The notes under the pieces: model-generated
The model's database searches: none
What the model saw: the letters and a program-made list of their open reading frames with translations, nothing else
Told to the model about the DNA's origin: nothing
NCBI GenBank assembly: GCA_963781505.1
Contig: CAWAHB010000010.1
Location: 237,547-301,546 of the forward strand
DNA length: 64,000 nucleotides
Source of the DNA: an uncultured delta proteobacterium
GTDB lineage: Bacteria; Myxococcota_A; Polyangia; Polyangiales; Polyangiaceae
Direction: 5' to 3'
Translations under genes and position numbers: made by a program
In this document: positions 3,650 through 42,186 of the stretch, in pieces
Numbering within the stretch: position 1 is the first letter of the stretch
How the letters are laid out: the number at the start of each line of letters is the position of its first letter

Positions 3650-3747
3650 CTCTCGGGGTTCGAGCGCGGATACCCGTGTTCTATCCAGGGTTTGGGAAAA
3701 GCCGGCTCGCCGAAAACGTTGGCGTCATTCCTGCTCCATGGAGCGGC

Positions 3748-5302: not shown

Positions 5303-5391
5303 CCGGTAGCTGAGCGCAGTCTGAGCCAGCGCACGCCACCCTGGGCGGGCCTGACGAGCTCTGCTACGCCTACCGCCCCGCGGAGGGCGAC

Positions 5392-10556: not shown

Positions 10557-10600
10557 GCCTTTCTTGTACGAGGCGCCACGTCAGGGCGTGGCCACAGTAC

Positions 10601-16503: not shown

Positions 16504-17468
16504 GATTCTTTCTTCCGTTCGTAGCGCGCTTCTCTGCAAAGGCGGTAACCACCTCGAAGTACGGCTTCTTCCGCTCTCGAGAGGTGATCCCGACTTCGCT
16601 CACGACAAGGCCGGAGGACTCGAGGAGGCGCCGGAGCGCTTTGGGCTCGAACCCAGGGTGAACGTGACCATACGCTTCGGTCACTTCCGAGTGCGAATGT
16701 GCCGCCAACGTCACCAGGGCAAGCGTCCCGCACGATCGCAATACTCGGGTCGCTTCGCTCAGGGCGAGGCGAGGCTCCGGAGCGTACGAGAGGGTGTTGA
16801 GCAGGAGCACTTGATCGAAGGACTCGGACGCGAACGGCAACTCCTGCATGTCGCCCAGGGTCACCCGGACGTTGCCAAGCTTTCCGAGTCGGCGTTTCGC
16901 AGCTTCGATCATGCGCTCGCTACGGTCGAGCAGCGTGATGCTCTTGGCGCGAGGAGCCAGGAGCGCTGCGATGGCACCGTCGCCCGAACCCACGTCGAGC
17001 ACGTCGCCGAGCTTCACGAATCCGAGAAGCCCCCGCGCCGTGGCCTCCCAGGTTCGGCCGGGCGAGTAGTGACGCTCCATCTCGCCCGCAATCGAGTCGG
17101 GCCAGGAGCTTCCACCCTTGGCTGCCCGCTTGAGCTTTTCGCACCGCGCGCGATCGGCTTCGAGCAGCGCGTCGGACACCTGGGATTCGACGAGCTCCCA
17201 TACCCGGCGGGCCGCCTCCGGCATCGCGCCATCGTTCACGGCGTAGAACGTGGAGGCGCCCGCCTTGCGATCTCCTGAGCAACCCGGCGTCTCGAAGTCG
17301 GCCGAGGTGAGTCGACACCCGGGACTGCGGAAGCTCGGTGATCGCGGTGAGCTCGGCCACGCTGAGCTCGTCTTTGGCGAGCAAAGCCATCAGGCGAACG
17401 CGGGTCGCGTCCCCAAAAACGTGCAGAAGCTCGACCGTCGAGTCGACGGTGGCGTGATATCCGTTCAT
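16496..17468 (-). CDS. Fused ArsR-family HTH regulator / class I SAM-dependent methyltransferase; single frame break at ~17275
   Basis: ORF 16920..17468 N-terminus [31 protein letters not shown] (ArsR wHTH). I translated the junction as [23 protein letters not shown], which joins ORF 16496..17239 ([19 protein letters not shown] motif). The stop overlaps the metH start (ATGTCTGA at 16496-16503). Confidence 0.8.
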
Positions 17469-21608: not shown

Positions 21609-22880
21609 TCATTGCTCCCCGAAGCGCGCACGACACGCCGCGCTTGCGACTTCTGCATCGTCGAACTCGAGCACTCGGTCGACGATGGTTTGCGTCCTCT
21701 CGTGACCCTTCCCGGCAATCACCACGATATCACCCAGTCTTGCCTCTTCAATCGCTCGCGTGATGGCGCGGGCCCGGTCTGGATCCAGCTCGAAAACCAC
21801 TTGCCTACCCTGCGTTGTACGACCGCCTCTGGCGGGGTCTTCCTCCGGAGAAATCAGAGTGGTTTTTGCCCCACGAAGTATGTCCTCCGCGATGGCCTCC
21901 GGGCTTTCGTAGCGTGGGTTGTCGGCGGTCACGACGAACCAATCCGCACGCTCGGCTGCGACCCGTCCCATCTCGGGTCGCTTTCCGGGATCGGAATCCC
22001 CTCCGCATCCGAATACCAAAAGCACGCGTCCGCCCGCGGCGAGGTTCCTTGCTTGATCGAGAGTGCGAGAGAGCGCGTCCGGTGTGTGAGCGTAATCCAC
22101 CACCACGAACGGGTTTCGCCAGACGGGTTCGAAGCGGCCACTCGTTCCCGAAAACTCCCGAAGCCCGACAGCGATGTTCTCCGGAGAGTACCCGAGCGCG
22201 TGAGCTCCGAGCGCCGCGGCGAGTGCGTTGTCGACGTTGACCTCACCAATGACCTGGAGCACGAGCTCGCTCCCGAGAAATCCTGGATCGAGCTCGATAC
22301 GCGTCTCGGTTCGGGTCACCGAGCTCGAACGAGCACGGAGCTCGAGGGGGAGGTCCCGACATTCCTCGGGGACGTTGGCTCTCGCTGCACAGAAAGCCAT
22401 GCGCCGCGCGGAAGCAGGCGTCACTTCGGAAAGCAATGCGCTCGCCGGGTCGGCGGCGTTGAACACCGCAGTCCCCCCCCTCACGAGCTGCATGAACAGC
22501 TGTGCCTTGGCGGCCAAGTAGTGCTCGGCATCTCCGTGATAGTCGAGGTGATCCCGCGACAGGTTCGTGAACACCGCCACCCGCGCCGGCCACACCTGCG
22601 CAAACCCGTTGGCCAGAGCCCGTGAAGTGGTTTCCAGCGCGAGGGTGCGCACCCGAGCGGCCTTTGCGGCTTCGATTCCCAGCGCAAATGCTTCGGTGGT
22701 CGAACCTTCGGCGATGAGCTCGCCATTCACCCACGCTCCGAGGGTGGTGATGCGGGCCGAAGGCTCTCCCGCCGCACGCACGATGGACTCCAGCATCCCC
22801 GTGGTGGTCGTCTTGCCGTTGGTGCCAGTTACCGCCACGGTCTCGAAGGCGGCATGTAGCTCGCGACGGATCTCGGTCAT
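21609..22880 (-). CDS. MurE-like Mur ligase lacking the N-terminal UDP-binding domain
   Basis: Intact 423 aa. The P-loop VTGTNGKTTTT is only 17 aa from the start. Also SRDHLDYHGDAEHYLAAKAQLF, GRFE, VVDYAHTPDAL, VFGCGGDSDPGKRPEMG, the MurE-specific DNPR motif (TADNPRYESPEAI) and IAGKGHE. Confidence 0.8.
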   Translation of the reverse strand: MTEIRRELHAAFETVAVTGTNGKTTTTGMLESIVRAAGEPSARITTLGAWVNGELIAEGSTTEAFALGIEAAKAARVRTLALETTSRALANGFAQVWPARVAVFTNLSRDHLDYHGDAEHYLAAKAQLFMQLVRGGTAVFNAADPASALLSEVTPASARRMAFCAARANVPEECRDLPLELRARSSSVTRTETRIELDPGFLGSELVLQVIGEVNVDNALAAALGAHALGYSPENIAVGLREFSGTSGRFEPVWRNPFVVVDYAHTPDALSRTLDQARNLAAGGRVLLVFGCGGDSDPGKRPEMGRVAAERADWFVVTADNPRYESPEAIAEDILRGAKTTLISPEEDPARGGRTTQGRQVVFELDPDRARAITRAIEEARLGDIVVIAGKGHERTQTIVDRVLEFDDAEVASAACRARFGEQ

Positions 22881-25016
22881 GTAAACGAAGGCGCGGGGTG
22901 GCTATCGGCGGTCTTGATGGCCTCGCTGAGGTCGTCGTTCGTGCGCAGACACGAGTAGCAGTCGCCCATCCGCAAGAACCCGCAACCACGACGCACCGTG
23001 AGGGCGCGGAGCTTGCTGAGCGATCGCGCATCAGCGCTGGCGCGCGCCCGGGACATCACGCCACGCAATTCCGTGCACCCGCGGCTCTTGCTCAGATCGA
23101 GCGCCACCAGCAGCGCCGGCGAAGCCTTGGCACGGATGTTACTCCCGTCCACGTAGGTCTTGGCGATCTTGTTGACGTCGGCGGCGTCCTTGTTCGAGCG
23201 CGTGGTCGAATACACGTCGTAGGCGATATCGGCTCCCGTCGCACCGAGCGCCGCAAGCGCGAGATCGAGGGCTCTGGCGGTATGCTTTGCATCGAGCGCG
23301 AGGCGGCGAACGTCCAGGATGAGGGGTCGATCTTTGGCGAGCCCGGGCTCGAGCGCGAGCGCCTTCTTGAACGCCCCGAGGCTCGCGTCCCCGAGGGACA
23401 GCTTCGCGTATCCGCGTCCCAGTGCTCGCCATTCCGCGGCGCTGCGGCTCGCCTCCGGCCGCGAGTTCAACGTGTTCAGGGCATTGCGATCCCCCGCCTC
23501 GGCGAGGGCCAGATCGACCGGCGGCCCTTCAGCGGTCGTCCCGCCAGCCAGCGTACTGCCGGACGGGGATGGGGACGGGCCCGAGACGCTGGAAAGAACC
23601 AAAACTCCGATCACCGCACCCGCGAGCACGAGCATCACGGCGCCGGTCAGTGCGAGGGCCCAAACCGGGACGGGTTGCCCGCCGAGGTCGAGGTTCTTCG
23701 CCAAGATCGGCGCACGGTCGAAGATGCTGGAAACGAGCGTCGAAGGGGCTCGCGCCAGAGTGCGGGCTTGCACGCGCGCCAGGTCGGGACTCGCCACGCT
23801 GAGAACGGTGTCGGAATACTGAACGCTCTTGGCGGCTGCACTCGCGGGCGCACTCATGGGCGAAGGCGTGAGTGCTTGTCCGGACGAGAACGGTCCCGAC
23901 GCGATGGGCCGGAGCTCGTCGATGCGACGTACGACCTCGGCCGCGGTCTGCACGCGTGCATCGGGGTCTTTGGCGAGCAGTTGCATTACCAGCGCCCCGA
24001 CTCCGGGGCTCGAGGTTTTGGGGCAGCGGAGCGGGATCCATCGTCATCTGGCGGGTGAGCACCACGACCATGTCGTTGTCCGCAAAGGGACGTCGTGCCG
24101 CTGAGCATCTCGTACAAGATGATCCCCAGCGTGTAGAGGTCGGCGCGCAACGTCGACCGGAGTGCCGGCGGCTTGTTCCGGCGCCATGTACTCCGGCGTG
24201 CCGAATACCGTGCCCGCCTGGGTGAGCCCGGCCTGGGCATCGCCAAGCTCGATTTTTGCGATGCCGAAGTCCAGGACCTTCGCGATGGGCGGTTCCTGAT
24301 CCTTTTGCACCAGCATGACGTTGTCGGGCTTGAGATCGCGGTGAACGATCCCTGCAGCATGCGCCGCATCGAGCGCGGAGGCGATTTGACGCCCGATGTG
24401 AAGTGCCAGCTCCGGCGACAGCGGTCCCCGCGCCGAGAAGCTCCCGGAGGCTCTCGCCCTCGACGTACTCGAGCACGAGATAAAACGACCCGTTGTCGAG
24501 CCGACCGAAGTCTTTCGCCGTGACCACGTTGGGGTGCTCGATGCGGGCCGCGGCCACCGCTTCCCGTTCGAACCGAGCCACGACCTCGGGCAAGTAGGTG
24601 AGCTCGCGGTGGAGGATCTTCAAGGCCACCGCTTTGCGCATGAGCACGTGCTCTGCCCGATACACGACGCCCATCCCGCCGGCACCGAGCTGTTCGATGA
24701 TTCGATAGCGATCCGCCACGATGATCCCCGATGCGGGTCGGTTCGTCGTCCGAGCCGTCCGCCTCGTTACTCTTCGGATCCGCTTCCGGAATCGAAGGCG
24801 GGCGCTGCGCCCCAAGCGACACTGGGGACGCCTCCGGGAAGCTGGGTCGCCGGTCGGTTCAGAGCGAGGGGAGTCTTGGACGGACTGGACGCGCTGCATG
24901 GTCGAGAGCGGCGGCGGTTCGCCGGGCGTCGTGATGGACGGCGGCTCGCCCGGCTCCGTCTGGCCAGGCGATCCGGAATGGTGTTTCGGCAGCGGGCTCT
25001 TCAACTGAGGCCCCAT
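22877..25016 (-). pseudogene. Hanks-type Ser/Thr protein kinase with TM segment and large extracytoplasmic C-terminal domain; at least 5 frame breaks (~23990-24730)
   Basis: Kinase subdomains are scattered over three minus frames. YRIIEQLGAGGMGVVYRAEH..AVALKIL is in ORF 23529..26150. I translated [15 protein letters not shown], which continues into ORF 24044..24316 (MLVQKDQ...VLDFGIAKI...[10 protein letters not shown]). [13 protein letters not shown] is in ORF 23986..24822. The C-terminal 369 aa (ORF 22877..23986) contains the TM span WALALTGAVMLVLAGAVIGVLVL. The start at 25016 is tentative. Confidence 0.75.
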
Positions 25017-26590: not shown

Positions 26591-27930
26591 ATGGCAGACG
26601 ACGACTTCGCTTCGATGTTCCAGGCTGTACCCGCCGAAAGCCGCGCTCGTCGCTTGCGGGACGGCGAAGTGGTCGAAGGCACCGTCAGCCAGATCGGCGG
26701 CGACAGCGTGTTCGTGGATGTTGGGAGCACGAAAGATGCAAGGATCCCCAGCTCCCAGCTCACCAGCCGTGAGGGCGAGCTACTCCGTGAAAGTCGGAGA
26801 CCGGATTCGGGCAACGGTGGTCGACGCGAGCCCGGAAGTGGTGGAGCTCGCGGTGTCCCTCGGACGCGGCGTCGCGGATGCGGCGGAGCTCCAAGTTGCT
26901 CAGGAAACCGGAATGCCGATCACCGGCAAAGTGGTCAAAGCGGTCAAGGCCGGCCTCGAAGTCGACGTGAGTGGCGTCCGAGCTTTCTGTCCTGCGTCGC
27001 AGATCGATCTCGGCTTCGTCAAAGAGCTCGACGTGTACACCGGTCAGACGATGGAATTCAAGGTGCTGGAGGTACGTGACGGCGGACGCTCCGTGGTGGT
27101 TTCCCGGCGCGCCTTGCTGGAAGAGCAGCGCCGAGAACGCGAAGCAACCATGGGCGAATCTCTGCGTGCCCGGTACGGACGTCCGCGGCACGGTGGCTTC
27201 GCTCAATCGTCATGGTGTGGTCGTGGACATCGGCGGCATCGACGGGTTCATTCACATCTCCGAGCTTTCCCACAAGCGAGTGGAGCGCGCGGAAGACGTG
27301 GTGAACGTCGGTGACCAAGTCGAGGTCCGAGTGATCGGTGTGGAGCGAAACGAAAAAGGGGTTCGTGTTCGGCTCTCGATGAAGGCGCGGGTCGATGCTC
27401 CAGACGCCCCGGCTGCCCCCGCACCGGACGAAGTACTGACGGCCACGGTACTGCGCACGGCGTCGAGCGGCGTCGTGGTGAGCACACCCAAAGGCGAAGG
27501 TCTGATTCCGCTCCGGGAGCTCGGCCTTCCCACCGGCGGCGATCATCGACGGGCCTATCCCGTGGGTAAGACGTTCGATGTCGTCGTCTTCGATCGCGAC
27601 GGGCGAGGCCGCACCCGGTTTTCCGCGGTCGGGGTGGCGCGGGTCGAAGAGCGTCGCAACGTGAAGGAGTTTGCCTCGTCCCAGCAGGGGCTCGGAAGCC
27701 TCGGCGATCTGCTGCGGGAAAAGCTCGGCCTGCCGGAGCCACCGCCGGAGCCAGCTACTCGGCCCGAGCCCGCTCTGACCAAAGCCAGGCCCTCACCGCC
27801 CGAGGTCGACTCACCACAGGTCAGCTCACCAAGCGTCGCCGAGGCGAAGATCGTCAGCGACGCTACGTCGTCCGGTCCTCCATCGTCCCGACGTCCGGAT
27901 CCTCCGGGTGTGGTGCGGCGGAAGCGTTGA
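26591..27930 (+). CDS. S1 RNA-binding domain protein (four S1-like OB folds, Pro-rich tail); two frame breaks (~26750, ~27150)
   Basis: GEVVEGTVSQIGGDSVFVDVG (ORF 26384..27079). PITGKVVKAVKAGLEVDVSGVRAFCPASQI (ORF 26406..27314). VRGTVASLNRHGVVVDIGGIDGFIHISEL and LTATVLRTASSGVVVSTP (ORF 26971..27930). Confidence 0.75.
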
Positions 27931-27931
27931 G

Positions 27932-28910
27932 ATGCGCGCGGTCCGCTGTCACGAGCTCGTCGGTCCGAGCGGTCTTCGCGTCGACGAGATCGAGCCTCCC
28001 GACGCCGGGCGCGGGCGAGATCGCAATCGATGTCCACGCGGCGGGGGTGAACTTTCCGGACGTTCTCCTGACGCGCGGCAAGTACCAATTTCAGCCGACC
28101 TTGCCCTTCAGCCCGGGGGGCGAAGCGTCTGGCGTCGTGTCGGCAGTGGGCGACGGAGTCAAACGCTTTCAGGTTGGCGATCGCGTTGCGGCGACCATGA
28201 TATTCGGCGCGCTCGCCGAACGCGTGGTCGTTCCGGAGGCAGCGGCTTCGCGGGTTCCCGACGGGGTTTCGTACGCCCAAGCAGCCACGTTCCTCGTAAC
28301 GTACGGGACGATGTACCACGCGTTCGTCGAACGCGCTTCGCTCGCCGCGGGGGAAACAGTCCTGGTTCTCGGTGCGGCGGGAGGCATCGGGCTGGCCGCC
28401 GTCGATCTAGCCAAGGCGCTCGGCGCACGGGTGATCGCCGCAGCGTCGTCACCGGAAAAGCTCGAGGTGTGCCGCGCTCTCGGTGCCGATCTTCTCATCG
28501 ATTACTCGCGGGAAGATCTGAAAGAGCGTGCCAAGGCTCTCAGCAACGGTGGAGTCGACGTGGTGGTCGATCCAGTGGGCGGCCCGTATTCCGAAGCGGC
28601 GCTGCGTGCCACGGGTTGGAATGGTCGCTTCTTGGTCATCGGATTCACCGCTGGAGAGATCCCGAAGGTGCCGCTCAATCTGGTGCTCCTGAAGGGCTGT
28701 CAGATCGTCGGCGTGTTCTGGGGCATGGCGGTCGCGAAAGACCCCGAGAAAAATCAGCGGAACGTGGCTCACCTGTTCGGGCTCTTGGACCAGAAGACAC
28801 TCCACGTGACGATCGACCAGACCTTCCCCCTCGAGCGCGCGCAGGATGCGATCGAGCGGGTCGCCCAGCGAGAGGCACAGGGCAAGATGGTCATCGTCGT
28901 CCGGGATTGA
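27932..28910 (+). CDS. NADPH:quinone oxidoreductase / zinc-type alcohol dehydrogenase family; one frame break near ~27995
   Basis: MRAVRCHELVGPSGLRVDEIE is in the frame of ORF 27908..29170. The rest is in ORF 27927..28910 (GEIAIDVHAAGVNFPD, GETVLVLGAAGGIGLAAVDLAK). Confidence 0.8.
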
Positions 28911-28943
28911 TGGCGAGCGCCGCCAATCACGAACTTCTCGAGC

Positions 28944-29816
28944 TCAGCCGCTCACGCCCTGGAGTGCGCGGATGCGGCTTTCGATGGGGGGATGGGAGCG
29001 GAACAACGACAGGAACCCGCCCTTGCCGCCTCGAATGCCGAACGCCGCGACGGTCTGGGGAAGCTCGCTTTCTTGGTTCTCATCCAGCTGGCGCAGGGCG
29101 GAGATCATCTTCTGCGCTCCCACCAGGCGCGCGCTGCCCGCATCCGCACGGTATTCACGCCAGCGGCTGAACCACATCACGATGATGGTGGCCAGGACCC
29201 CGAGGAGGATCTCCAGCACGATCACCGTGACCCAGTAGCCAAGTCCGCGACCCCGGTTCTTGAAGACGGCCTTGTCGATGATGTTGCCAATGATGCGCGA
29301 GAAGAAGATGACGAAGGTGTTCAATACACCTTGAATCAACGCCAGCGTGACCATGTCGCCGTTGGCAGCATGGGAGACTTCGTGGGCCAGAACGGCTTCG
29401 ACCTCGTCGCGTCCCATGCCATTGAGCAGCCCCGTGCTCACGGCAATCAGCGAGCTGTTCTTGGAAGCCCCCGTTGCGAACGCGTTGGGCGCGCCGTCGT
29501 ACACCGCCACCTCGGGCATGCCGATGCCGGCTTGCTGCGCTTGGCGTCCGACCGTCGAGAGGAGCCAGTGCTCCATCTCATTTCGCGGTTGAGTGATGAC
29601 CTGCGCCCCGGTGGCCATCTTGGCCAGCGGCTTCGAGAGCAAGAGCGAGATGGCCGACCCGCCAAACCCCCAGACGACTGAAACGATCGCAAGGGGGAGG
29701 TACGTGGTGTCGAACTTGCCGAGGAGCCCCGTCATCCGGAGCACCGTGAACACCACGCCGAGCAGAACCATCACGGCGAGGTTCGTGAGCAAGAAGAGGA
29801 CGATTCGCTTCAGCAA
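28944..29816 (-). CDS. htpX: Membrane zinc metalloprotease HtpX (M48)
   Basis: Intact 290 aa with N-terminal TM helices, HEVSHAANGDM (HExxH) and a C-terminal FRSHPPIESRI. Confidence 0.9.
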   Translation of the reverse strand: MLKRIVLFLLTNLAVMVLLGVVFTVLRMTGLLGKFDTTYLPLAIVSVVWGFGGSAISLLLSKPLAKMATGAQVITQPRNEMEHWLLSTVGRQAQQAGIGMPEVAVYDGAPNAFATGASKNSSLIAVSTGLLNGMGRDEVEAVLAHEVSHAANGDMVTLALIQGVLNTFVIFFSRIIGNIIDKAVFKNRGRGLGYWVTVIVLEILLGVLATIIVMWFSRWREYRADAGSARLVGAQKMISALRQLDENQESELPQTVAAFGIRGGKGGFLSLFRSHPPIESRIRALQGVSG

Positions 29817-29991
29817 GGGTCGATTCTCCGGCTGTGGGGATTCCTAATCAGGAAGCGGTCGAGTGTCGACCTCGAGCGCGGGCGGGGACGACGCGCCGCG
29901 CCAGATGGCCTCCGGAAGGCCCGAAGGAGGCACCCACCTTGACACCGCTCGGAACATGCGAGACCGAATGTGGCTCCCCAGGCGCCGGATC

Positions 29992-32900
29992 ATGGCTTCG
30001 ACCGATTCACTCCGCCGTCGGCCGACGAGCGCCGACCGGCCTCCTCTCGAACTCGCTGAGCTCTTGCGAGGGCGACGTCTGGTCGTTCTGGGCGGCACCG
30101 GGTTTCTGGGCAAGGTCTGGTGGACCTGGCTCCTCTCTCACTTCCCCGACCTCGGGCGCATTCATCTCGTGGTGCGTCCGCGTGGAGCGCAGAGCGCAGA
30201 AGATCGATTCTGGAACGACATCGTCACGAGCCAGTGTCTCGATCCGCTACGCGCTCAGCACGGCGATCAGTTCGAGCAATTCATGCGCGAGAAGGTAGTG
30301 CCCGTCGCCGGCGACGTCGTGCAACCGTTCTGCGGCCTCGCGGTCGATCTGCGTGATGAGATTCGTGGGTCCGTCGACGTAGTCGTCAATGCGTCCGGTG
30401 TGGTCGACTTCGACCCGCCTCTCGACGAAGCACTGGAGGTCAACGCCTTCGGAGTGCAAAACCTCGTCGCTCTGGCCAGGGACCTCGGCGACGTCCGGTT
30501 GCTCGCATACCAGCACCACGTACGTGGCCGGCTCGCGGACCGGTATCATCGAAGAGACCGATCCCCGCCTCCACCCGTTTCCCCGCGCCGCGGAGCTCGA
30601 GCGCGAGCATTGGGATCCCGACCGCGAGATCGCCGAATGCATGGACGTGATCGAGCAGGCTCGCCATCGCTCGAGCGACGCCTTCCGCCAGAGCCGGTTC
30701 TTGGACGAGGCCAAGAAGAACCTGCTGGGCCGCGGGGAGCCGGCCCGAGGGGTCGTCTTGGACACCGAAGTCGAGCGAGTGAAGCGGAAATTCGTCGAAG
30801 CGCGCCTCGCCGAAACCGGCATGGAGCGTGCGAAATTCTGGGGCTTTCCCAACACTTATACCTACACGAAAGCAATCGGCGAGCAGATCATTGCGTGCTC
30901 CGGGCTCGCGTTCACCATCGTTCGGCCCGCGATCGTCGAGAGCACCGTGAAGTTCCCGTTCCCGGGTTGGAACGAGGGCATCAACACCAGCGCTCCGCTC
31001 ATCTACGCCCTTCGCGAAGGACAGACTCAGATCCCCGGTTCGGACAACTACCTCGACATGATCCCCTGCGACATGGTCGCCGGCGGCATGACCCTGGCCC
31101 TCGGGGAGCTGCTCGATGGAAGCGCGAAGGCCGTCTATCAGCTCGGTTCGAGCGACGCGAACCCGTGCACCATGCGTCGCTTCTTCGAGCTCAGCGGCCT
31201 CTACAAGCGGAAGTACTATCAGCGAACTGGGCGCGGGGGACCCGTTCTCTCGGCGCTGCAATCGCGATTCGAGGGATCGCCTCCTCAGCGGCGATCAGTT
31301 CACTCGCTTCGGTCCCCGCGCGATCGCGAGCGGCGCCCAGGCCGCGGCCAAGCTCCTGGGCCGAACCGCAAAAGGACCCGCCGCGCCCCTCTTGGCCCCC
31401 GCGGCGAAGCTACTCTCGGGGTTCGCGGATCAGCAGGAGAAGGTCGGCTCGGTCCTCGGCGCATTCATTCCGTTCACCGCCGAGTACGATTACGTCTTCC
31501 GCTGCGACAACACCCGAGCAGCCCTCGAGCGACTGAGCCCAGCCGAACGAGCCATCGTCCATTTTTCGCCGGAGAGCATCGACTGGCGACAGTGGTTCTT
31601 GGAAGTCCACGTTCCGGGCCTGGAAAAGTGGGTTTTTCCCGAGATCGAGGAGCGGATCAAGCGCCCGCGTCGAGCCCCCGAGCGTCACACGACGCTGCCC
31701 GCACTGCTCGACGAAATGGCGGAGCGCTACGACCTTGCCGTCGCGCTTCAGCGAACGGAAGCCGACGGGCTCACCCGCACGAGCTTCCGACAGTGGCGAG
31801 ATTGCTCCCAGGCGTGCGCCGCGCGACTCGAAGCGCTGGGTGTCGAGCCCGGCGACCGCGTGATCGCTGGCAGGCGCGAATCACCCCGCCTGGCCCATCG
31901 CCTTCTTCGGCATCTTGATGGCCGACGCCTCGGTGGTTCCTGTCGACGCGAACGTCGACGCCGAGGTCGCCGAGAACTTGCTGGAGGCGAGCGGCGCGAA
32001 GGTGATCATCGCGGATCGCGAGGTGCGCCGCCGAGTGCACGGCGGAATCGATCGCGATGTCGCCTGGATCGATCTCTGGGAGTCGGCACGACCGGGACCG
32101 CCGATCGAGCGGAAGCACGACGCGCGCCCCGACGATCTCGCTTGTCTCGTGTACACCAGCGGAACCACCGGCACACCGAAGGGCGTGATGCTTTCCCACG
32201 TGAACCTGACGGCGCTGGTCGCCTCCCTCGCGCCCCTCTTCCCCCTCGGCAAAGGCGATCGCGTGCTCAGCGTTCTGCCGCTGCACCACACGTTCGAGCT
32301 CACGTGCGGCCTGTTGCTCCCGCTGTCGCGCGGGATCGCGCATCGTGTACCTGGACGAGCTGTACCGCCGAACGACTCGAATCCGGGCTGAAAGCGGGCC
32401 GAATCACGGCGATGATCGGCGTTCCCGCGTTGTGGCAAATGCTCGAGCGCCGGATCAGCGCGCGCGTGGCCGAGCATGGCCGATTTGCTTCCCACGTGTT
32501 CGACTTTGCGGTGGAGCTCAATCGAAGCCTCGGCAAGAGCGTTGGCATCGACGCCGGCAAGCTGCTCTTCGGACCGGTTCACGAGGGACTCGGCGGTCAC
32601 CTTCGCTACCTGGTGAGCGGCGGGGCGGCGCTTCCAGAGCGGACGCACCATGCCTTCGCGGGCATGGGGCTGCACCTGGCCGAAGGCTATGGACTCACGG
32701 AAGCTGCGCCGGTGCATCACCGTGGCGCCAGCGGGACCACGAGCCAAGTCCGGCCATGTCGGCAAGCCAATTCCTGGAGTCGAAGTTCGCATCGATCGAC
32801 CGAACGCCGATGGCGTCGGAGAGGTGCTAGCGCGCGGACCCAACGTGATGCTCGGCTACCGTGGCGATGCGGAGAGCACGAGCCGCAGCATCGATCGCGA

Positions 32901-34227
32901 CGGCTGGCTCCGCACCGGCGATCTCGGCAAGATCGATCGACGCGGCCAGCTGGTGATCGTCGGCCGGGCAAAGGACGTGATCGTTTCCTCGAGCGGCGAG
33001 AACGTCTACCCGGACGACGTCGAAGCCAAGCTCGGCGAGATCTCGCTATCTCTCCGAGTACGCGATCGTCGGAGTCGAACGATCCTCGCGGCGGGGAGCG
33101 AGTCGCGTGCGTCGCGGTGCCGGAGCCCGACGAGGCTGGCGACGCGCGCCGAACGCCATACCCGGGCAAAACGCAGCCTGGACAAGGCCCTCTCGCGAGC
33201 TGCCCCGGCTCGATGCGCCCGGCGATGCGTGACCATCCTGGACGCTCCCCTTCCGCGGACCGCCACGCGAAAAGTGAAGCGTTCCGAAGTCCGGCGCCAT
33301 CGTAGAGCGCATTGCACCGCTTTCCGAGCGGCCGCCGCGACCGGTCGAGGGCGGCGATCTCGACGGCGCGGCGCGTGTCGTGCGGGCTGCGGTCGCCGCG
33401 ATTGCCCGCAAGCGTCCCTCGGAGCTCGACGCTGCTCTCGATCTCCGTGCCGATCTGGGTTTCGATTCCCTGATGTTGCTCGAGCTGCTGGTGGCGCTGG
33501 AGGCGCAGCTCGGTGCGCTCCGTCGATGCCGATCGCCTGAGCGCCTGCTCCACGATCGCGGAATGCGAAGCGATGGTGCGAGAGACAGGCGCCGCGATTG
33601 CGTCACGCCGCAACAGCCAGCATCGAGCGCGAGGACGAGACCCCACTCGAGCTTCCGCCGCCGCTGCGCGAAGCGGCCATGCACTGGCTCGGCCGGGCGC
33701 AGATGGGTTTTTACGACCGCGTGCTCAGGACCACGGTGACCGGTCGCGCCTTCATCCCCCACAACCGCAACACGCTGATCGCGGCGAACCACGCGAGCCA
33801 TCTCGACATGGGCCTGGTGAAGTTTGCCCTCGGTAGCTACGGACAGGGCATGGTTTCCCTCGCGGCCCAGGACTACTTCTTCGAGGGCAATCGCTGGCGG
33901 AAAGCCTACTTCGAGAACCTCACGAATCTCGTGCCGATGTCCCGCGCCGGATCGCTTCGGCAGAGCCTCCGGCAAGCCGGTGAGCTGGTCGATGGCGGGA
34001 AGACCGTCCTGATCTTTCCCGAAGGCACTCGCAGCTCGGACGGATCGATTCACGAGTTCAAGCCCGCCGTGGGCTATCTCGCCCTTACCCACGGCATCGA
34101 CGTGTTGCCGATCTATCTCGGCGGAACGCACGCCGCGTTGCCCAAGGGGGCGAGCACCCTCAAACGCCGAGATGTCTGCGCCCGAATCGGCCCGCCGCTC
34201 CTCGTCCAAGATTCTGCGACGCTCTGA
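29992..34227 (+). pseudogene. Multidomain lipid megasynthase: fatty-acyl reductase (NAD_binding_4 type) - AMP-dependent acyl ligase - carrier (ACP) domain - PlsC/AGPAT acyltransferase; ElbD-like; at least 14 frame breaks
   Basis: - Reductase: VVLGGTGFLGK (ORF 29863..31536) and FPNTYTYTKAIGE, a YxxxK motif (ORF 30389..31918).
- Ligase: LVYTSGTTGTPKGVMLSH (ORF 31915..32391), AEGYGLTEAAP (ORF 31116..33305), WLRTGDLGKIDRRGQLVIVGRAKD (ORF 32650..33540) and LPRTATRKVKR.
- Carrier: LGFDSLMLLEL (ORF 33380..33739).
- Acyltransferase: NHASHLD (HX4D) and FPEGTRS (ORF 33598..34227).
Frame order traced by hand. Confidence 0.75.
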
Positions 34228-34287
34228 CCGCACGGGCTGAGCCCGAGCGAAGCATCCCGCACGGTTGCAAACCTCGCTCGTCACGCG

Positions 34288-34722
34288 GTGCTCGCGCTGG
34301 CCCGTGGGGATCGACTGGATCTCGCTCGGGCCGCGACCTTGGAGGACGCCCTCTGCGGCGAAGTCGACGACTCCCTCGAGCCGCTCTTCCGCGAGCTCGA
34401 GAATCGCTTCGTCCCGGGCAGCGTCGACGAGCCGGTTACGTTCTACTTTTCTCTCGGAGAAAAAGAGCGATGGACCCTCACCGTGGAGCCCGCTCTTTGC
34501 ACCGTCAGCACCGGCAAGGCGGTGGACGTTGCGGACTGCGTGCTCAAGACCTCACCGGAGATGTTCCGTCGCATCGTGCGAGAAGCGTACGCACCCTCCC
34601 CGGCGGAGTTCGTTTCAGGTGCTGTGAAATCCAATAACATCGCACACTTGGTGACATTCCAGCGCGCCTTCCAGCTGGAGCTACCGAGCGACCGCCGAGC
34701 TGCGATTGGAGAGGCCGAATGA
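34288..34722 (+). CDS. SCP2 (sterol-carrier-like) lipid-binding protein, or the C-terminal domain of the preceding megasynthase
   Basis: ORF 34288..34722: VTFYFSLGEKERWTLTVEP...CVLKTSPEMFRRIVREAYAPSPAEFVSGAVKSNNIAHLVTFQRAF (SCP2-like). It is in the same frame as the AGPAT ORF and separated from it by a single TGA at 34225-34227. The stop overlaps the next start (ATGA at 34719-34722). Confidence 0.6.
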   Translation: MLALARGDRLDLARAATLEDALCGEVDDSLEPLFRELENRFVPGSVDEPVTFYFSLGEKERWTLTVEPALCTVSTGKAVDVADCVLKTSPEMFRRIVREAYAPSPAEFVSGAVKSNNIAHLVTFQRAFQLELPSDRRAAIGEAE

Positions 34723-35785
34723 CTGGCAACGGCGCTTCGAAACGCAAACGCTTCTGGGTCGCCGGGGCAACCGGTTTTCTCGGCTCGCACCTCACCGGAG
34801 TGCTCCGTGACCGCGGACACGAAGTCATCGCCACGTCGAGACGTGGCGCACCTGGTGTCGACGCGGTCGACGTTCAAGACGAAGAGGCTGTCGAGAAAAG
34901 CGCTCGCGGCGCGAACGGGGCGTTCCTCGCGTTCGGCAAGGTGAGCCGGGATCCCGACGACGCGGAGGAGCTCCACCGCACGAACGTGATTCCGGAACAC
35001 GACGGGCGATTTCTTCGCTCAAGCGGGCTGGCGTCCGACGGGTCGTCGTCGCGAGCACGAGCGGAACCATCGCCATCGGAACGGACCCCGACGAAGTCTT
35101 CGATGAAGAAAGCCCGACGCCGAGCGAGCTCATCTCGCGATTCCCGTACTACCGAAGCAAGCTATACGGGGAGCGCGAGGCACTCGAAGCCAACTCTCCG
35201 CCCGACTTCGAGGTCATCGTCGTCAATCCAAGCCTGTTGCTCGGCCCCGGCGACGAGAACGAAACTTCCACGCTGGACGTGCGACGCTTTCTCGAGCGGA
35301 GCATCCCGGCGGTCCCCGCAGGTGGCATGGCCTTCGTCGATGTCCGGCGACGCGGCCCTGGGGATGCTGCTCGCGTTCGAGCACGGCGAGCCGGGACAGC
35401 GCTACCTCTTGAACGCGAAGAACCTGACTCTGGCAGCGTTCTTTCAGCGACTTTCCCGCATGACGGGAGTTCCGGCGCCGAGGCTCCGACTCCCCGCTTC
35501 CCGACCGCTGGCTCTCTCGATCCACGAGGTCTTCAGCCGGGCGGTCCGCGCAATCGGCGGTGAGCCGCCGGTCGACTCCGGGACTATGGAGATGGCGCAA
35601 TGCTTCTGGTACTGCGAGCTCGGCCAAGGCGGAGCGGGAGCTCGGTTGGAGCGCACGGGACGTGGCCGAGACTCTGCGAGACACCGTCGACGACCTCAGA
35701 GCCCGGGGCGTCGTGCCGAGAAAACGTCCGCTCCCGGATTTCCGCGGAATCGTCAACGCCAGGCATCGCGACTCCGAATGGGTGA
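34719..35785 (+). pseudogene. NAD-dependent epimerase/dehydratase family (SDR) protein; at least 3 frame breaks (~34992, ~35347, ~35615); 3' end uncertain
   Basis: FWVAGATGFLGSHL in ORF 34719..36443. I translated VRRVVVASTSGTIAIG...FPYYRSKLYGE (YxxxK) in frame 2. GQRYLLNAKNLTLAAFF returns to the first frame. SSAKAERELGWSARDVAETLRDTVDDL is in ORF 35560..35919. Confidence 0.7.
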
Positions 35786-37136
35786 TTTCGACTGCGTCGT
35801 CGTCGGGGCGGGTTTCGCCGGTTTGGCGGCCGCCGATGTCCTCGCTCGAAGCGGCAAACGGGTTTGCGTGCTCGAAGCGCGGGACCGAGTGGGCGGACGA
35901 GTCGCGACCACGACTCTAAGGATGGCACGGTCATCGACATCGGTGGACAGTGGCTCGGCCCGTCGCACGATTGCATGTACGCGCTATGCCAAAGATACGG
36001 CAAAGAGGTGTACCCGATGTAGCCGGGGGAAAGAACTTGCTCATCCTCCGAGACAAGACCCGCACCTACCGAGGACACATCCCGCTCCGAGCGCCCATTT
36101 TCACTTTGTTCAATCTCGGTTGGGTGCTCTTCCGGCTCGATCGCCTCGCCCAGAGTGTTCCCCTCGAAGCTCCCTGGGACGAAGAACGCCGCAGCGCTGG
36201 ATCAGCGCACGCTCGGCGACTGGATCCATCAAAACGTGCGCGACCCCCATGCGCGATCGATGGTCGAAGATCGGGGTCGAAAGCGTGTTTGCCGCGCACC
36301 CCGACGAGCTGTCGCTGCTGCACGCCCTTTTTTACATGCGCTCGGGCAACAGCTTCGACTTCCTCACCCAGTCCCAGGGCGGAGCCCAGCAGGACCGGGT
36401 GAGCGGAGGCATCCAAGCCCTCGCGGAAGTGCTGGCGAGCTGACGTGAAGAAGGGCGGCGAGGTCCTGCTCGATTCCCCGGTCCGCAGGCCATCGAGCAG
36501 ACGGGACTCGGTCAGCGTCGAGCCGAGTGCGGGACGAATCCGCGCGCGGCGCGTGATTGTCGCGTTGCCACCTCCCCTGGCCGGCGAGATTGCCTTCAGT
36601 CCGGACTCTCGCCCCGAGCGCCGCGAGCTTCTGTCGCGGCTGCCCATGGGAGCGGTGATCAAGTGCGTGGCGGCGTACCGAGAGCCGTTTTGGCGCGCCC
36701 GGGGGTTGTCCGGGCAATCGGTCTGCGATCGCGGACCGGTGAACGTGACCTTCGACGCTTCGCCAAAGAGCGGCTCTCCGGGGCTGCTGTTGGCATTCAT
36801 CGAAGGTCCCGCTGCACGAGAGCTCGCGAGCTGGGACCTCTCGAAGCGACGCGGGAGCTGGTACTCGACGCGTTCGGGGCGCGCTTTGGGCGCGAGGCGA
36901 CGAGCCCCTCGACTACGTGGATCGCGCGTGGACCAAAGAGTCCTACAGCTCGGGGCTGCTACGCAGCTCTGTTTCCTCCAGGCGTCTGGACCAGCGTGGG
37001 TCATGTGGTGCGCCAGCCGGAAGGGCACGTCCACTGGGCGGGAACGGAAACGGCCAGCCGCTGGAACGGCTACATCGAGGGCGCGGTGCTCTCGGGAGAG
37101 CGCGCGGCACGCGAGGTGATGGCCAGCCGTGTGTGA
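35778..37136 (+). pseudogene. Flavin-containing amine oxidase / phytoene-desaturase-like FAD oxidoreductase; at least 7 frame breaks
   Basis: FDCVVVGAGFAGLAAADVLARSGKRVCVLEARDRVGGR (dinucleotide fold + GG motif). I translated [34 protein letters not shown] is in ORF 36445..37119. The C-terminal [26 protein letters not shown] is in ORF 36663..37136. Confidence 0.75.
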
Positions 37137-38329
37137 CAGCGTCGTGGTCGTCGGGCCCGGGCTCGCTCCTTTTCGGCAAGAACAGCGATTGCGATCCCAA
37201 CGAAGCCCAGCGCCTCTGATGGCATCCGCGCCGGAGCACACCACCGAAGGGGACCAACTGCAGGTGCACCTGGATCGGCATTCCGCAAGCGCCCACCACC
37301 TTCGCAACACTGCTCAGCCGCCCGTATTGGATGTGGGGCGCAGAGATGGGGGCGAACGAGCACGACGTGGTGATTGGCAACGAAGCGGTCTTCACCCATG
37401 CCTCTCGCCAACCGGTCGGCCTGCTCGGGATGGACCTCCTCCGGCTCGCCCTCGAACGCGCGACGAATGCCGAAGAGGCGACCCGTGTCATCGTCGACCT
37501 CCTCGAGCGCCATGGCCAGGGCGGTCGCGCTGGCTACGACGACCCCGGGTTCACGTACGACAACAGCTTTCTGGTCGCCGATCCGAAGCGGGCGTTCGTC
37601 GTAGAAACGGCGGGGCGCGAGGCCGCGATCGAAGAGGTGAAGAGCGGGGCGCGCGCCATCTCGAACGCGCTCACTCTCGAGCCCCTGCGACGGCGCGCGG
37701 CCGACCGACTTCGCGGAGCTGTCGCGGGGGCGGAGAAGCGCCGTACCTGCACGGAGACCGAGGCCGCCGGTGCCACAGCGCCCGAGGACATCGCCCGGGC
37801 GCTCCGCAGTCACGGAGCGCGCGCAGAGCCGCGCTACGATCTGGTGACGGGGGCCATGTCCGCGCCCTGCATGCACGCCGGCGGGCTCGTCGCGAACAGT
37901 CAGACGGTCGCATCGTGGATTTCCGAGCTCACGCCGAACGGGGTCCGGCATTTCGTGACCGCCACGGCCGCGCCGTGCCTGTCGGCATTCAAGCCAGTTC
38001 GACTCGATCTTCCCGTCGATCTCGGCGCACCCACGGGGATCGTGGGAGACGATGCCTTCTGGCGATTCGAAGCGCTTCACCGAGCCATCATCGGCGACCC
38101 GGCGCTGTGCTCGAGATATCGGCGCTACCGCGACGAGTGGGAGAAAAGAACCTGGAGCGGGGAGCGGAGCCGGTCGCGCGCGTTCGAAGAGTGGGACGCG
38201 TTCGTCGCCGACGCCAGCGCCGAGCTCGTAGGGACCGCTCGTGACCAGCGCCCTTGGGTCGCCCGGCGTTACTGGCAGGCGCGTCAGGCGGACGCCGAGC
38301 GAGCGGCACCCAAGCTCCCTGCCTGGTGA
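37129..38329 (+). pseudogene. Peptidase C69 / secernin-like Ntn-hydrolase (Cys2 nucleophile); 3 frame breaks (~37162, ~37215, ~37262)
   Basis: (GTG)[11 protein letters not shown], then SLLFGKNSDCDPNEAQRL (tail of ORF 36917..37219), then APEHTTEGDQLQ, then CTWIGIPQ...RPYWMWGAEMGANEHDVVIGNEAVF (ORF 37331..38329). The start overlaps the amine-oxidase stop by 8 nt. Confidence 0.7.
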
Positions 38330-38348
38330 GGGCCTTTGACGCTGACGG

Positions 38349-41300
38349 GTGCGCCGCGCATATTGCCTCTGGGTGAGCGATCGATACACGGCACCGGTTC
38401 TGGTGCGGCAGAGCAGTAGCGCCTCGGTCTATCGCGCTTACGATTCGGAGCTGGGCGAGCTCGTCGCGCTGAAGCGCGCGGCGGACGTCCAGAGCTCCAG
38501 CCGGGTCGTCTCGGAGGCCAAGCTCCTCGAGGGTCTCCAGCACCCGAAGCTACCCATCGTCATCGAGCATGGGGTGAGCGAGCTCGGTCTCGCCTATCTC
38601 GTGACCCGCTGGATCGACGGGCCGACTCTGGCGGAACGTCTTCGTGTCGGTCCGCTGCCGATCGACGACGCGGTCCCCCTCGCCCACGAGCTCGCCCGGG
38701 TTCTCGGCTATCTACACGACGCTGGCGTCGTCCACCGCGACGTGAAGCCGAGCAACATCCTCCTGGCCGGCGGCGCGACCGAGGACGTGCGCCTGGTCGA
38801 TTTCGGCATCGCGCTGTCCGGCGGGGACCAATCCGAAACCGGCTTTCCCCTCGGCACGCCGGGCTTCATGGCGCCCGAGCAAGCTCGGGGACAAGCTCAG
38901 ATCGATGCACGCGCCGATGTATTTGGGCTCGGCGCCGTGCTGTTCACGAGTCTGACCGGGCGCCCGCCGTTCGTCGGTGACGGCGTCACCGGGACTTTGG
39001 CGCGACTCTTGTTCGAGGCGACTCCCAGCTTGAAGAGTGCGCTACCGAGCGCTCCCCCATGGCTCGAGGAGGTCCTGCATCAGTTGCTCGCCAAGTCCGC
39101 CGGCGATTGTCCGAGCGACGGAAATGCGGCCGCGCGCTTGCTCGATCCTGGCTCGCGCGACGCTGCCGTGGTCTCGCTCCCCGGTTGGGCGCTCGGCGAC
39201 GCGGAACAACGAGTGGTGAGCGTGATGTGCGCGGCAGTCAGCAAGGAAGAGCCTCTGGACGACATCACGCGCTCCATGGTGCCTTCGAGCCGCACCGGCG
39301 CACTCGGGGAAGACGTGATGAGGGCAGTTCGAGCTTGCAAGGAAACGGGAGCGCGGGTCGAGCTCATCGCGGGAGACGTGATCGTTGCGTTGATCGAGCG
39401 CGGGACGGGTGCCGACGAGCGCGCGCTCGGTGCCCTGGCGTGCGCTCGCTGCTTGGAAAAGGAGCTCGGTCGGATTCCCCCGAGCGGTGGCAACCGGTCG
39501 AACCACGATTTCCGGAGGGATCCCCACGGGAGAGACGATCGATCGCGCGCTGTCCTTGCTCGAGGCCGTCCGACGCACCCATCCGCCGAAGCACGCCCAG
39601 GATCCACTTGTCGTCGATCGCACGACGGGAGCCCTGCTCTCGACGCGATTTCGGGTCGACGAGCTCGCGGACAGCGCCCTCTTGTTCGATGAGCCGGCTC
39701 GAGCGGCGCGCGAAGTGTTCGTCGGGCGCGAGGCCGAGCTTGCGCGCGTGATGGGAGACGTGACCGGGGCGCTCGAGGGTCAGGGCCCGCGGGTGGTGGC
39801 GCTCACCGGCCCCGCCGGGATTGGAAAAAGCCGCCTCTTGGCGGAAGCGGTACGCCGACTGGACGAGCGAGTGCCGGTCTGGCGAGCCGAGGGCGACGCG
39901 TTCGGCGACGCCAGACCGCTTCACGTCGCGGCCGAGCTCGTGAGAAGCGGGTTTGGGAGAAGCCGAGGGGACTCCGTCGTACGGGTTCTGCTCCGCCGTC
40001 AAGCGCGTCGCGCATTTGGCTCGCGGGATGCACGCCGATTGACGGCGTTCATTGGAGAGCTGCTGGGACTCAGCCCGACCGGCGAAGAACCGATCGAGAT
40101 CCGTGCCGCACGCCAAGACCCGATGCTGATGGCCGATCAGATCCGCGGCGCGTTTCTCGATCTGGTCGAGCACGTGTCGAAGGAGCGCGGTCTGTGTCTG
40201 ATTGTCGATGATCTTTCCCGCGTCGACCGGGCGAGCTTGGAGCTGATTCACCGCGCGTTCGAGGAGATCCCCGACGGACGGCTCGTACTCTTGACCGCAG
40301 CGCGAACCGAAGGGAAAGCCGGAGAATTTCGCCCGGACTGGCCCCATCTCGTGGAGATCGAGCTCGGTCCGCTTTCCCAAACAGAGTCGCGCCGAATCCT
40401 GACCGACCTCCTGGGCGAAAGCGACGCGGACCGCCTCGTGGACCGCCTCCTGGAACGCGCCCTTGGCAACCCGTTCTTCTTGCGGGAGCTCGGTCGCGCG
40501 TCCAAGAATCATGCAGAGCTTCCCGCGCTCGACACCGTGCTGAGTGTCGTCTCCACACGTCTGGAACGCTTGTCCGCCGATGCGCGTCGGTTGCTCCGAG
40601 CGGCGTCCTTCTATGGGACGCTGTTCTCGCTGTCCGCGCTCTCTCCTCTGACGAGGACCTCGCCGGGCCTCGCCGGATCGCTGGATGAGCTTCAGAACGA
40701 GGGTTTGATCCACCCGCGGGCGCGCTCGTACGTCGATGGCGAGCCGGCGTTTGCGTTTGCCCACGATCTCGTGCGCGAGGCGGCCGCGCGCCTGTTGACC
40801 CGCGAGGATCTCGAGCACGGGCACCGAGCGGCGGGACGCTATCTGGCGGCGCTGGCCGATGCGGATCCTCACGCGGTGGCGGAGCATTTCTTCCGCGGTC
40901 GGGATCTGGAGCGCGGGGCGGAATGGATGACGCGCGCTGCCGAACGGGCACTTGGGAAGGGCGCGCTCGCGGATTCCGAGCGATTGGCCGAGCGGGCCGT
41001 CTCCTTCGGCGCCGAGGGCGCGACGCTGGGCCGCGCGCGACTCGTCTTGGCCCAAGTCAAACGCTGGCAAGGCGTCGCCGCAGATGCTCACGCCTCGGCA
41101 CGGTCCGCGGTGGAGCTTCTGCCGGCCGGCAGCTTGGAGCTCGGGCGTGCGTTCGGCGAGCTGGCAACCGCGTGTGGGCGTCTGCGCTTCATCGACGAGC
41201 TCGAAGAGCACGCCGCGCGCATGCTCGACCTGCTCGAGCACGAGCCGAGCGGGCCACTGGTGGCCGCCGCCAGTCGCGCGATTGTTCAGCTCTATTACAA

Positions 41301-42186
41301 CGGTCGCGCAGATGCCGCGCGCGACGGTCTCGTGCGATTGGAGAGGGTCTCCCCCGAGCTTCTCGCCGCCGAACCCCTGGCCCGGGCCCGCCTGCTCGGC
41401 GCGAAGAGCGTCCGCGCGCTGTTCGCCGGCGATCCCGTTGGACAGCTCCAGCAAGTGAGCGCTGCGCGCGAGGCATTCCTCGAAGCGGGCGACCTTCGTG
41501 AGGCATGCTTGTACGAGCTCACGATTGGACACGCCTTCATCGAGCTCGGGTGCTTCGCGGACGCTGCGCGGACACTGCGCGAAGCAAGGCGCACGGCCCG
41601 GCGTTTGGGAGCTCGACTGCTCGAAAACCTCGCGACGCTGAACCTCGGCCTGGCCCTGGCTCGAAGTGGTGAGGAAGCTTTGGCGCGCGAAGCGGTCGAC
41701 CTCGAGCGTGCTGCCGTCGCGGCGGTGGAGAGCGGGGGAGACGCACGGGTGCGCTGCGCGGCGCGCTGCTATCTCGCGGAGGCTCTGATGGCGAGTCGGG
41801 ATTACGTCCATGCCGAGCTCGAAGCGCGCCAGGCGGTCGAGCTCGCGACGAATGCCTCCACCATGGCCGCCCTGGCTCAGGCCCTGCTCGCTGACGCACT
41901 CCGCCATCTCGGACGCGCCGACGACGCGGCCAGCGTTCTTTCGGAGCGGCCGGCGGCAGTCGACTCGGAGGAGAGCGAGGAAGGAGCCTTGCGCTGGCTC
42001 CTTTCGGCCGCAGAAACGGAGCTCGACCGCGGCGAGCGCCGACGAGCCACCGAAACCGTGGCCCAAGCCCACGAAAAGCTCCTGTCCCGCGCCAGTGCGA
42101 TCGTCGACCCAACGTACCGTGAAAGCTTTCTCGGTAGAGTCCGCGAACACGTCCGCATCCGCGAGCTCCACCAGAAACTTCGTTGA
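38349..42186 (+). CDS. Ser/Thr protein kinase fused to a cyclase-homology-like domain, AAA/STAND P-loop ATPase and TPR region; one frame break at the C-run 39476-39480
   Basis: VVHRDVKPSNILL, VDFGIAL and GTPGFMAPEQ (ORF 38349..39692). VVSVMCA...ELIAGDVIVAL, a class III cyclase-like core. FVGREAELARV...VVALTGPAGIGKSRLL, followed by ~650 aa of helical TPR-like repeats (ORF 39409..42186). Removing one C from CCCCC gives ELGRIPRAVATGRTTISGGIPTGE. Confidence 0.8.

Follow-up and report, generated by a model that had tools for sequence, protein, structure and literature searches.

Two conserved gene pairs as the probable content of a frame-broken elbD locus in an uncultured member of the Polyangiaceae

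In a 64,000-nt stretch of contig CAWAHB010000010.1 from an uncultured member of the Polyangiaceae (the whole of which we call the window), positions 29992-38329 of the + strand carry a tightly packed run of genes, which begins with an ElbD-like multidomain lipid enzyme, ends with a cysteine N-terminal-nucleophile (Cys-Ntn) hydrolase and is interrupted by many breaks of the reading frame. The locus raises the question of whether genes lying so close together serve one lipid pathway, and whether genes so often broken still encode proteins. A preliminary description of this DNA had favoured a single operon, in which an activate-reduce-acylate line feeds a flavin oxidase and an amidohydrolase, and had considered that the cluster might be dead. 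Our results point to another reading, to which we give a probability of about 0.72: the stretch consists of two independent, conserved two-gene cassettes, elbD-elbE and an amine oxidase-hydrolase pair, placed head to tail on the + strand, and the breaks are consensus errors of the assembly.

Gene content and genomic neighbourhood

The G+C content is about 65% over the whole window, and third-position G+C revealed that the coding frame of the + strand shifts repeatedly at 29992-38329. The in-frame pieces were stitched into four proteins, which were then scanned against Pfam. The first gene (29968..34722, +; about 1,575 aa when stitched) was assigned as elbD, encoding a multifunctional ether-lipid enzyme, on the basis of its Pfam domains and its 83% identity to the closest homologue, P0001. 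It is followed on the same strand by elbE, for an NAD-dependent epimerase/dehydratase (34719..35785, exact 3' end uncertain; PF01370, E 7.4e-26; 3-4 frame breaks), by a flavin amine oxidase of the monoamine oxidase (MAO) family of about 450 aa (35778..37136; PF01593, E 9.8e-70; about 8 frame breaks), and by a secernin/C69-like Cys-Ntn amidohydrolase of about 398 aa (37129..38329), assigned from a PF03417 match of 32.5 bits, the names of its homologues and the predicted fold. The earlier calls of an epimerase and an amine oxidase are thereby borne out by Pfam. Five genes had been counted in this stretch, and the actual number is four, as the piece taken for a separate SCP2 lipid carrier is the C-terminal domain of ElbD, with which it is continuous in all homologues.

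The gene boundaries are as they had been described. elbE overlaps elbD by 4 nt (ATGA, 34719-34722), and the identical overlap is present in three homologous contigs; both the ATG at 35778 and the TGA at 35783-35785 were found at the junction of elbE and the oxidase gene; and the 8-nt overlap at 37129-37136 between oxidase and hydrolase recurs in the two closest oxidase-hydrolase loci. Upstream, elbD adjoins the divergent htpX gene (M48 peptidase, 28947-29816, minus strand), and the intergenic region between them (29817..29967) is, judging from the layout of open reading frames (ORFs), a probable promoter region. A scan of 29700-38600 for promoters and terminators gave counts equal to the shuffled expectation, with no consensus promoter in the gap between htpX and elbD.

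Taken by itself, this layout would suit a single operon and pathway in which oxidase and amidohydrolase act on an ElbD-ElbE intermediate to give an uncommon ether or amino lipid: the genes share one strand, their boundaries overlap or abut (34719-34722, 35778 with 35783-35785, and 37129-37136), and no terminator-like site above chance lies between them. It also fits that some Cys-Ntn hydrolases act on lipid amides. Comparison of gene neighbourhoods nevertheless makes this explanation very unlikely. The related elbD set comprised 82 loci with homologues 45-74% identical to the stitched ElbD, including loci of Sorangium cellulosum. In 78 of them, elbD is followed by elbE; of the other four, at least L031 and L049 reach a contig edge just past elbD. 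An oxidase or hydrolase homologue lies within 10 kb in none of the 82. Synteny with elb clusters, whose absence would have spoken against the operon model of the preliminary description, was recovered for the first two genes and failed for the last two. In the closest relative (83% identity), elbE is followed by convergent unknown, unrelated genes, and in two other inspected relatives by genes for a phosphoesterase and an NFACT-R protein.

Seen from the hydrolase side, the result is similar. Among the 82 hydrolase loci, none carries the elbD-elbE pair, and the single "elbD" match (L155) is partial, with 30% identity over 570 aa and no elbE. A MAO-like oxidase gene is directly adjacent to the hydrolase in 20 of the 82 loci (4 upstream, 16 downstream), and in 8 of the 36 loci that extend for 1.5 kb or more in each direction. 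In the two closest hydrolase relatives whose contigs were usable (about 61% identity), the gene immediately upstream is an Amino_oxidase gene that overlaps by 8 nt, and elb genes are absent. The identical overlap of oxidase stop and hydrolase start is therefore found in three divergent genomes (L083, 6644-9227; L084, 297-2829; and the window, 35778-38329), which suggests translational coupling of oxidase and hydrolase. Since no elbD locus of the 82 carries either gene and the pair recurs without elb genes, the single-pathway idea is unsupported, and the comparative evidence indicates that oxidase and hydrolase form a separate recurrent module. A conserved third gene of this module was looked for behind the hydrolase and rejected, as the followers of about 250 aa in L083 and L084 are mutually unrelated and absent from the window.

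How the two pairs came together can be approached from the genes upstream of elbD. Many Polyangiaceae loci have the order elbD-elbE-htpX(+), with an S1/oxidoreductase gene next on the other strand (L005, L007, L009-L014, L022-L025, L029, L040 and L062). In the window, the htpX and S1/oxidoreductase genes (26775-29816) are instead upstream of elbD in the opposite orientation, and the contig of the closest relative shows the same M48(-)/elbD(+) arrangement with a gap of about 140 nt. Because htpX is upstream and divergent in both, elbDE is inverted relative to the htpX block, which implies an inversion in the lineages of the window and of the closest relative. The adjacency of elbE and the oxidase gene coincides with this inversion, a further point against a single pathway, and an oxidase-hydrolase pair behind elbE was seen in the window only. 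Repeats around the oxidase-hydrolase insert were limited to short chance matches, with no insertion scars. On comparative grounds, the adjacency seems most likely to stem from a lineage-specific rearrangement, and not to be a sign of a shared pathway. As elbE and the oxidase gene adjoin without intergenic space, their co-transcription is possible. Following the rearrangement, the four genes might even have become co-transcribed and jointly co-opted, for example to hydrolyse an ether lipid that bears an amine (ethanolamine-type or N-acyl) and to deaminate it oxidatively; we regard this as the slimmest of chances, and, if true, such a joint function could give a lipid beyond the reach of the elb genes alone.

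ElbD, ElbE and the predicted SCP2-like domain

The ElbD reading frame starts at ATG 29968, as in P0001, or at ATG 29992, the start chosen by the earlier reader, and ends at TGA 34720-34722. All motifs quoted in the preliminary description (GGTGFLGK, YTYTK, YTSGTTGTPKG, GYGLTE, TGDLG...GRAKD, LGFDSL, NHASHLD and FPEGTRS) were found in the three + frames, and its four-module first protein was recovered in the stitched translation, with Pfam matches to NAD_binding_4, AMP-binding, PP-binding and Acyltransferase. All domains are encoded on the + strand. Domain 1 is a fatty-acyl reductase (FAR)-type NAD(P)H reductase (30091..31081; PF07993, E 3.3e-44, residues 34-363) with the GGTGFLGK and YTYTK motifs, behind which a weak "Sterile" C-terminal FAR domain is matched (about 31431-31637; PF03015, E 1.9e-5). 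Domain 2 is an adenylating acyl ligase (31713..33273; PF00501, E 3.5e-77, residues 573-954; PF13193, E 4.7e-4) with YTSGTTGTPKG, GYGLTE and TGDLG..GRAKD. Domain 3 is an acyl carrier (33377..33572; PF00550, E 5.3e-11) with the phosphopantetheine serine in LGFDSL, and domain 4 a PlsC/AGPAT-type acyltransferase (33730..34119; PF01553, E 1.1e-19) with NHASHLD (HX4D) and FPEGTRS. Domain 5 (34237..34719) was assigned as SCP2-like and lipid-binding from PF02036 matches of homologues, an AlphaFold2 (AF2) model and Foldseek. The domain order is hence FAR, acyl-CoA synthetase, acyl carrier protein (ACP) and acyltransferase, then the SCP2-like domain.

P0001 (1,575 aa, 83% identity) aligns across all of 29968-34719, including the SCP2-like stretch. 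ElbD is continuous in all 120 listed homologues, and the window copy becomes a single polypeptide after the removal of about 17 single-base insertions. More than 1,400 proteins of like architecture belong to this family at E <= 1e-20, mostly from Polyangiaceae metagenome-assembled genomes and with a best identity of 83%. The loci of Sorangium cellulosum So ce56 and So ce26 are 52-53% identical to the window ElbD over about 1,130-1,560 residues. The second gene, elbE, also matches the HpnA-like family TIGR03466 at 2.9e-55, below the cut-off, and its product is 67% identical to ElbE of L001.

In Myxococcus xanthus, elbD and elbE belong to the elbA-E operon (Lorenzen et al., 2014, summarised in PMC9131029). 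ElbD of that species is described as having a FAR1-like domain ahead of acyl-CoA synthetase, ACP and AGPAT-like domains, with elbE, for an NAD-dependent epimerase/dehydratase, directly downstream (PMC9131029). The domain set and order of the window protein match this description, as the preliminary description had stated for the domain set, and elbE again follows directly. The likeness is one to the published description of the M. xanthus protein. As both architecture and downstream neighbour agree, the first two genes are, on sequence grounds, elbD-elbE, an ordinary copy of a pair that is widespread in Polyangiaceae. Differences from the M. xanthus operon were also observed: no elbA, elbB (HAD) or elbC was found near elbD in the window, no description of an SCP2-like C-terminal domain was found for ElbD, and the raw window sequence is frame-broken. 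The five-gene elbA-E arrangement does not occur at this locus, where htpX, encoded on the other strand, precedes elbD. Since elbD and elbE have been found in all three myxobacterial suborders, linked or unlinked to elbB and elbC (PMC9131029), the missing elbB and elbC neighbours leave the assignment intact.

By analogy with published work on ElbD, the ligase domain would adenylate a fatty acid and load the carrier domain, the N-terminal FAR-type domain would reduce the thioester to an aldehyde or alcohol, the AGPAT-like domain would acylate a glycerol-phosphate-type acceptor, and ElbE, a short-chain dehydrogenase/reductase, would provide further reduction. The expected products of elbD-elbE would be alkyl ether lipids. 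A comparable logic is known from the animal peroxisomal enzymes FAR1, GNPAT and AGPS, with which the window protein shares the FAR1-like and AGPAT/GNPAT-like domains and would share the fatty-acyl reduction and the acylation of a glycerol-phosphate-type acceptor. In contrast to the animal enzymes, these activities are fused with adenylation and carrier domains in the window, and no AGPS-type flavoenzyme forming the ether bond was found in the segments scanned.

It may be asked whether the protein has the domain set of ElbD but is an enzyme of another kind, one that makes wax esters, fatty alcohols or acyl lipids. For M. xanthus ElbD, neither FAR nor AGPAT activity was ever demonstrated in vitro (PMC9131029), and no homologue of AGPS, elbB (HAD-like) or carF was detected in the window segments scanned; for CarF, the vinyl-ether desaturase, a confinement to one other myxobacterial suborder has been reported (PMC9131029). 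Against this, the five-part architecture and the elbE partner are as in the family that contains the genetically characterised M. xanthus ElbD (MXAN_1528 / Q1DC43), the reported occurrence of elbD and elbE in three suborders allows for elbB and elbC being unlinked (PMC9131029), and the identity to the Sorangium cellulosum homologues reaches 52-53%. We therefore hold a function outside ether-lipid synthesis to be improbable in a high degree. Elsewhere in the window, unlinked to elbDE, a membrane fatty-acid desaturase is encoded at 9642-10577 (minus strand; PF00487, histidine boxes), which by Pfam family is not a plasmanylethanolamine desaturase of the CarF/PEDS1 type.

The C-terminal domain of ElbD deserves separate treatment. 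In the raw sequence it is cut off by a stop at 34225, which sits among three single-base insertions at 34207, 34223 and 34230 (identified at a lower frameshift penalty). Because these insertions explain the stop and P0001 aligns throughout, the SCP2-like piece is taken as the C-terminal domain of the first protein. The window copy gave no match to a profile hidden Markov model (HMM) even at E up to 10. PF02036 was weakly matched by 14 of 18 homologous C-termini (best E 1.1e-4), and a profile search against PDB placed the SCP-2L domain of MFE-2 on top at a non-significant E of 0.15. The AF2 model was confident (predicted local distance difference test score, pLDDT, 86.5), and in Foldseek 41 of its 42 matches with E <= 1e-3 were SCP2-type domains, with a probability of 1.00 and a target-normalised template-modelling (TM) score of about 0.6, and the matches at E of about 1e-5 to 1e-4 included the C-domain of the alkylsulfatase SdsA1, human SCP2 and UbiJ. 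An SCP2 alpha/beta fold for the C-terminal domain of ElbD is supported by this model. The predicted fold is what the domain shares with human SCP2, the SCP-2L domain of MFE-2, the SdsA1 C-domain and UbiJ, whereas its sequence similarity to them is marginal and its ligand binding only putative.

The profile of the domain found only 292 clusters among 1.84 billion representatives. In the best 150 of these 292, it matched the very C-terminal end of ElbD-like proteins (1,519-1,699 aa), fragments, or stand-alone proteins that are about 105 aa long. The stand-alone relatives were considered as candidates for ElbC and set aside, as the one that was checked proved to be an SCP2 protein from an unrelated, marine setting. 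A literature search for ElbD together with SCP2 or "sterol carrier" returned nothing relevant. We propose that the SCP2-like domain would hold a hydrophobic chain. A conserved domain of the ElbD family that goes unmentioned in the accessible literature could bear on how the hydrophobic intermediate is handled during ether-lipid synthesis.

The amine oxidase and the Cys-Ntn hydrolase

The oxidase has a full-length Amino_oxidase domain (PF01593, E 9.8e-70, positions 1-443 of 443) and an N-terminal GxGxxG FAD motif, VVVGAGFAGL. Among solved structures, it is closest to 8p84, "Monoamine oxidase" (E 3.9e-113), on which a literature search found nothing relevant, followed by MAO-A/B (MAO-A at about 1e-80), cyclohexylamine oxidase and putrescine oxidase. 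The full-length domain and FAD motif are common to all of these flavin monoamine oxidases (8p84, human MAO-A/B, and the putrescine and cyclohexylamine oxidases). Compared with the mammalian MAOs of 520 aa, the window oxidase, at about 450 aa, is of soluble size and, judging from the lengths, lacks the C-terminal membrane anchor region. It is 62-64% identical to the oxidases of L083 and L084.

The hydrolase begins with a GTG start followed by the nucleophile Cys, and its VCDSVVVV aligns with MCD[ST]VVVV of homologues. Its homologues are named secernin, C69 or U34, and some carry PF03577. The window protein itself left the Peptidase_C69 HMM (PF03577) unmatched; its sole match was PF03417 (AAT, C45) at 32.5 bits, and the NCBIfam model C45_proenzyme scored 33 bits, below the cut-off of 85. 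By sequence, the hydrolase would therefore be said to sit between C45 and C69. A sequence search against PDB gave no match. For a homologue of 72% identity, P0122, a model with a pLDDT of 89.9 was available, and its best Foldseek matches were the C69 dipeptidase entries 5img, 5imh and 5iau (E 2.5e-11 to 5.6e-11), with AAT and bile-salt hydrolases as the next fold matches. The secernin-like label given earlier to the last gene is in keeping with both homologue names and predicted fold, and the view that the hydrolase is a secernin/C69-like Cys-Ntn enzyme is supported by the model. Shared with the Cys-Ntn hydrolases of clan PB(C) (C69, C45 AAT and the bile-salt hydrolases) are the Cys right after the initiator and the KNSD(R)DPNE motif behind it, with C69 as the best fold. 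The hydrolase differs from them by a helical C-terminal extension of about 90 residues and by its recurrent pairing with a MAO-type oxidase.

For the pair as a whole, a two-step reaction can be envisaged, in which the hydrolase would cleave an amide conjugate and free a primary amine, which the oxidase would then turn into an aldehyde. No literature was found on the pairing of a secernin with an amine oxidase. The recurrent and apparently coupled pair of a MAO-type oxidase and a secernin/C69-like hydrolase in diverse bacteria is thus without a described function, and it is a candidate for a route from amide to amine to aldehyde.

Frame breaks and other genes of the window

The preliminary description had counted at least 27 breaks in this stretch, called it the most frame-broken of the window and raised the concern of a dead cluster. 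Frameshift-aware alignment to intact homologues agrees with the count, giving 14-17 indels in elbD (all insertions), 3-4 in elbE, 8 in the oxidase gene and 1 in the hydrolase gene, plus two apparent stops, and it confirms the stretch as the densest. In the hydrolase gene, one break lies near 37153-37165, in addition to a TGA at 37217. The breaks were already present in the deposited assembly, on a contig of 387.5 kb, as the public 327-aa ORF P0121 corresponds exactly to window 37346-38326 and is the truncated product expected from the broken hydrolase gene. Intact homologue loci (n = 2) put through the identical procedure showed no internal events.

On these facts, elbD, elbE and the oxidase gene could be pseudogenes made by real frameshifts, in a lineage from which the ElbD-dependent ether lipids have disappeared. 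Such decay would account for some 27 indels and two apparent stops within 8.3 kb, for a density about 10 times that of most of the window, for the clean adjacent htpX and for the presence of the breaks in the deposited assembly. The nature of the events argues otherwise. Every indel is of 1-2 nt, elbD has neither deletions nor a true nonsense codon, and both apparent stops are explicable by nearby indels instead of substitutions. The encoded residues also appear unharmed: ElbD keeps 463 of 470 invariant columns (intact homologues miss 0-7), the hydrolase 107 of 109 (intact homologues miss a median of 2) and the oxidase 63 of 65 (intact homologues miss 0-13), whereas neutral decay that collects 27 indels should alter many such positions. 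Furthermore, a codon-usage Viterbi path placed same-strand frame switches, not at stop codons, throughout the window (for example at 97/99, 1037/1039, 14137/14140, 17275/17277, 27158/27160, 39467/39469 and 42690/42692), and these hit housekeeping genes such as NAD synthetase nadE (2-1833, minus) and methionine synthase metH (12809-16515, minus), among others. Noise from single-base indels seems to extend over the entire contig. Because the events are limited to 1-2 nt and dominated by insertions, without amino-acid decay and with housekeeping genes affected, the roughly 27 breaks are more likely to be single-base consensus errors of a long-read assembly, mostly or wholly insertions, than gene decay. 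A dead cluster is unlikely in our view, and the concern about it probably reflects an artefact. Until the contig is polished, its gene calls are unreliable.

Two further clusters of frame switches were noted outside the stretch. A stand-alone AMP-binding long-chain acyl-CoA ligase at 5353-7042 (+), to which ElbD homologues match weakly, has about 6 frame switches in 1.5 kb. At 24007-24412 (minus strand), four switches fall within about 400 nt, the densest cluster outside the elb-hydrolase stretch, upstream of a Mur-ligase-like gene at 21636-22895.

Several observations weigh against two independent cassettes broken by consensus errors. The indel density is uneven, at about 4/kb from elbD to the oxidase gene, 0 in htpX and the RNase D gene and about 0.4/kb elsewhere, which a uniform error model fails to explain; local low coverage or strain variation would be our guess at the cause. 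In the KNSDR motif of the hydrolase, the window has Cys in place of a nearly invariant Arg (NSDCDPNE; 37174-37176, residue about 21), which may be a sequence error or a real change at a probable active-site residue. All four genes point the same way, with zero or negative spacing, and co-transcription across elbE and the oxidase gene is plausible. Lastly, P0122, the closest hydrolase relative, comes from a contig too short to reveal what surrounds its gene.

Some other genes of the window were recorded in passing. At 3742-5206 (+), a VanY-type D-Ala-D-Ala carboxypeptidase domain occurs in fusion with an extended series of calcium-binding thrombospondin type 3 repeats. At 21636-24725 (minus strand), a Ser/Thr protein kinase frame runs directly into a frame for the middle and C-terminal domains of a Mur ligase on the same strand. 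Directly after the hydrolase gene, 38367-42177 (+) encodes a protein of about 1,270 aa in which a Ser/Thr kinase, an AAA-type NTPase and a TPR-like region were recognised by eye, and a consensus-like promoter match at 38336-38364 lies in the 37-nt gap between the two genes.

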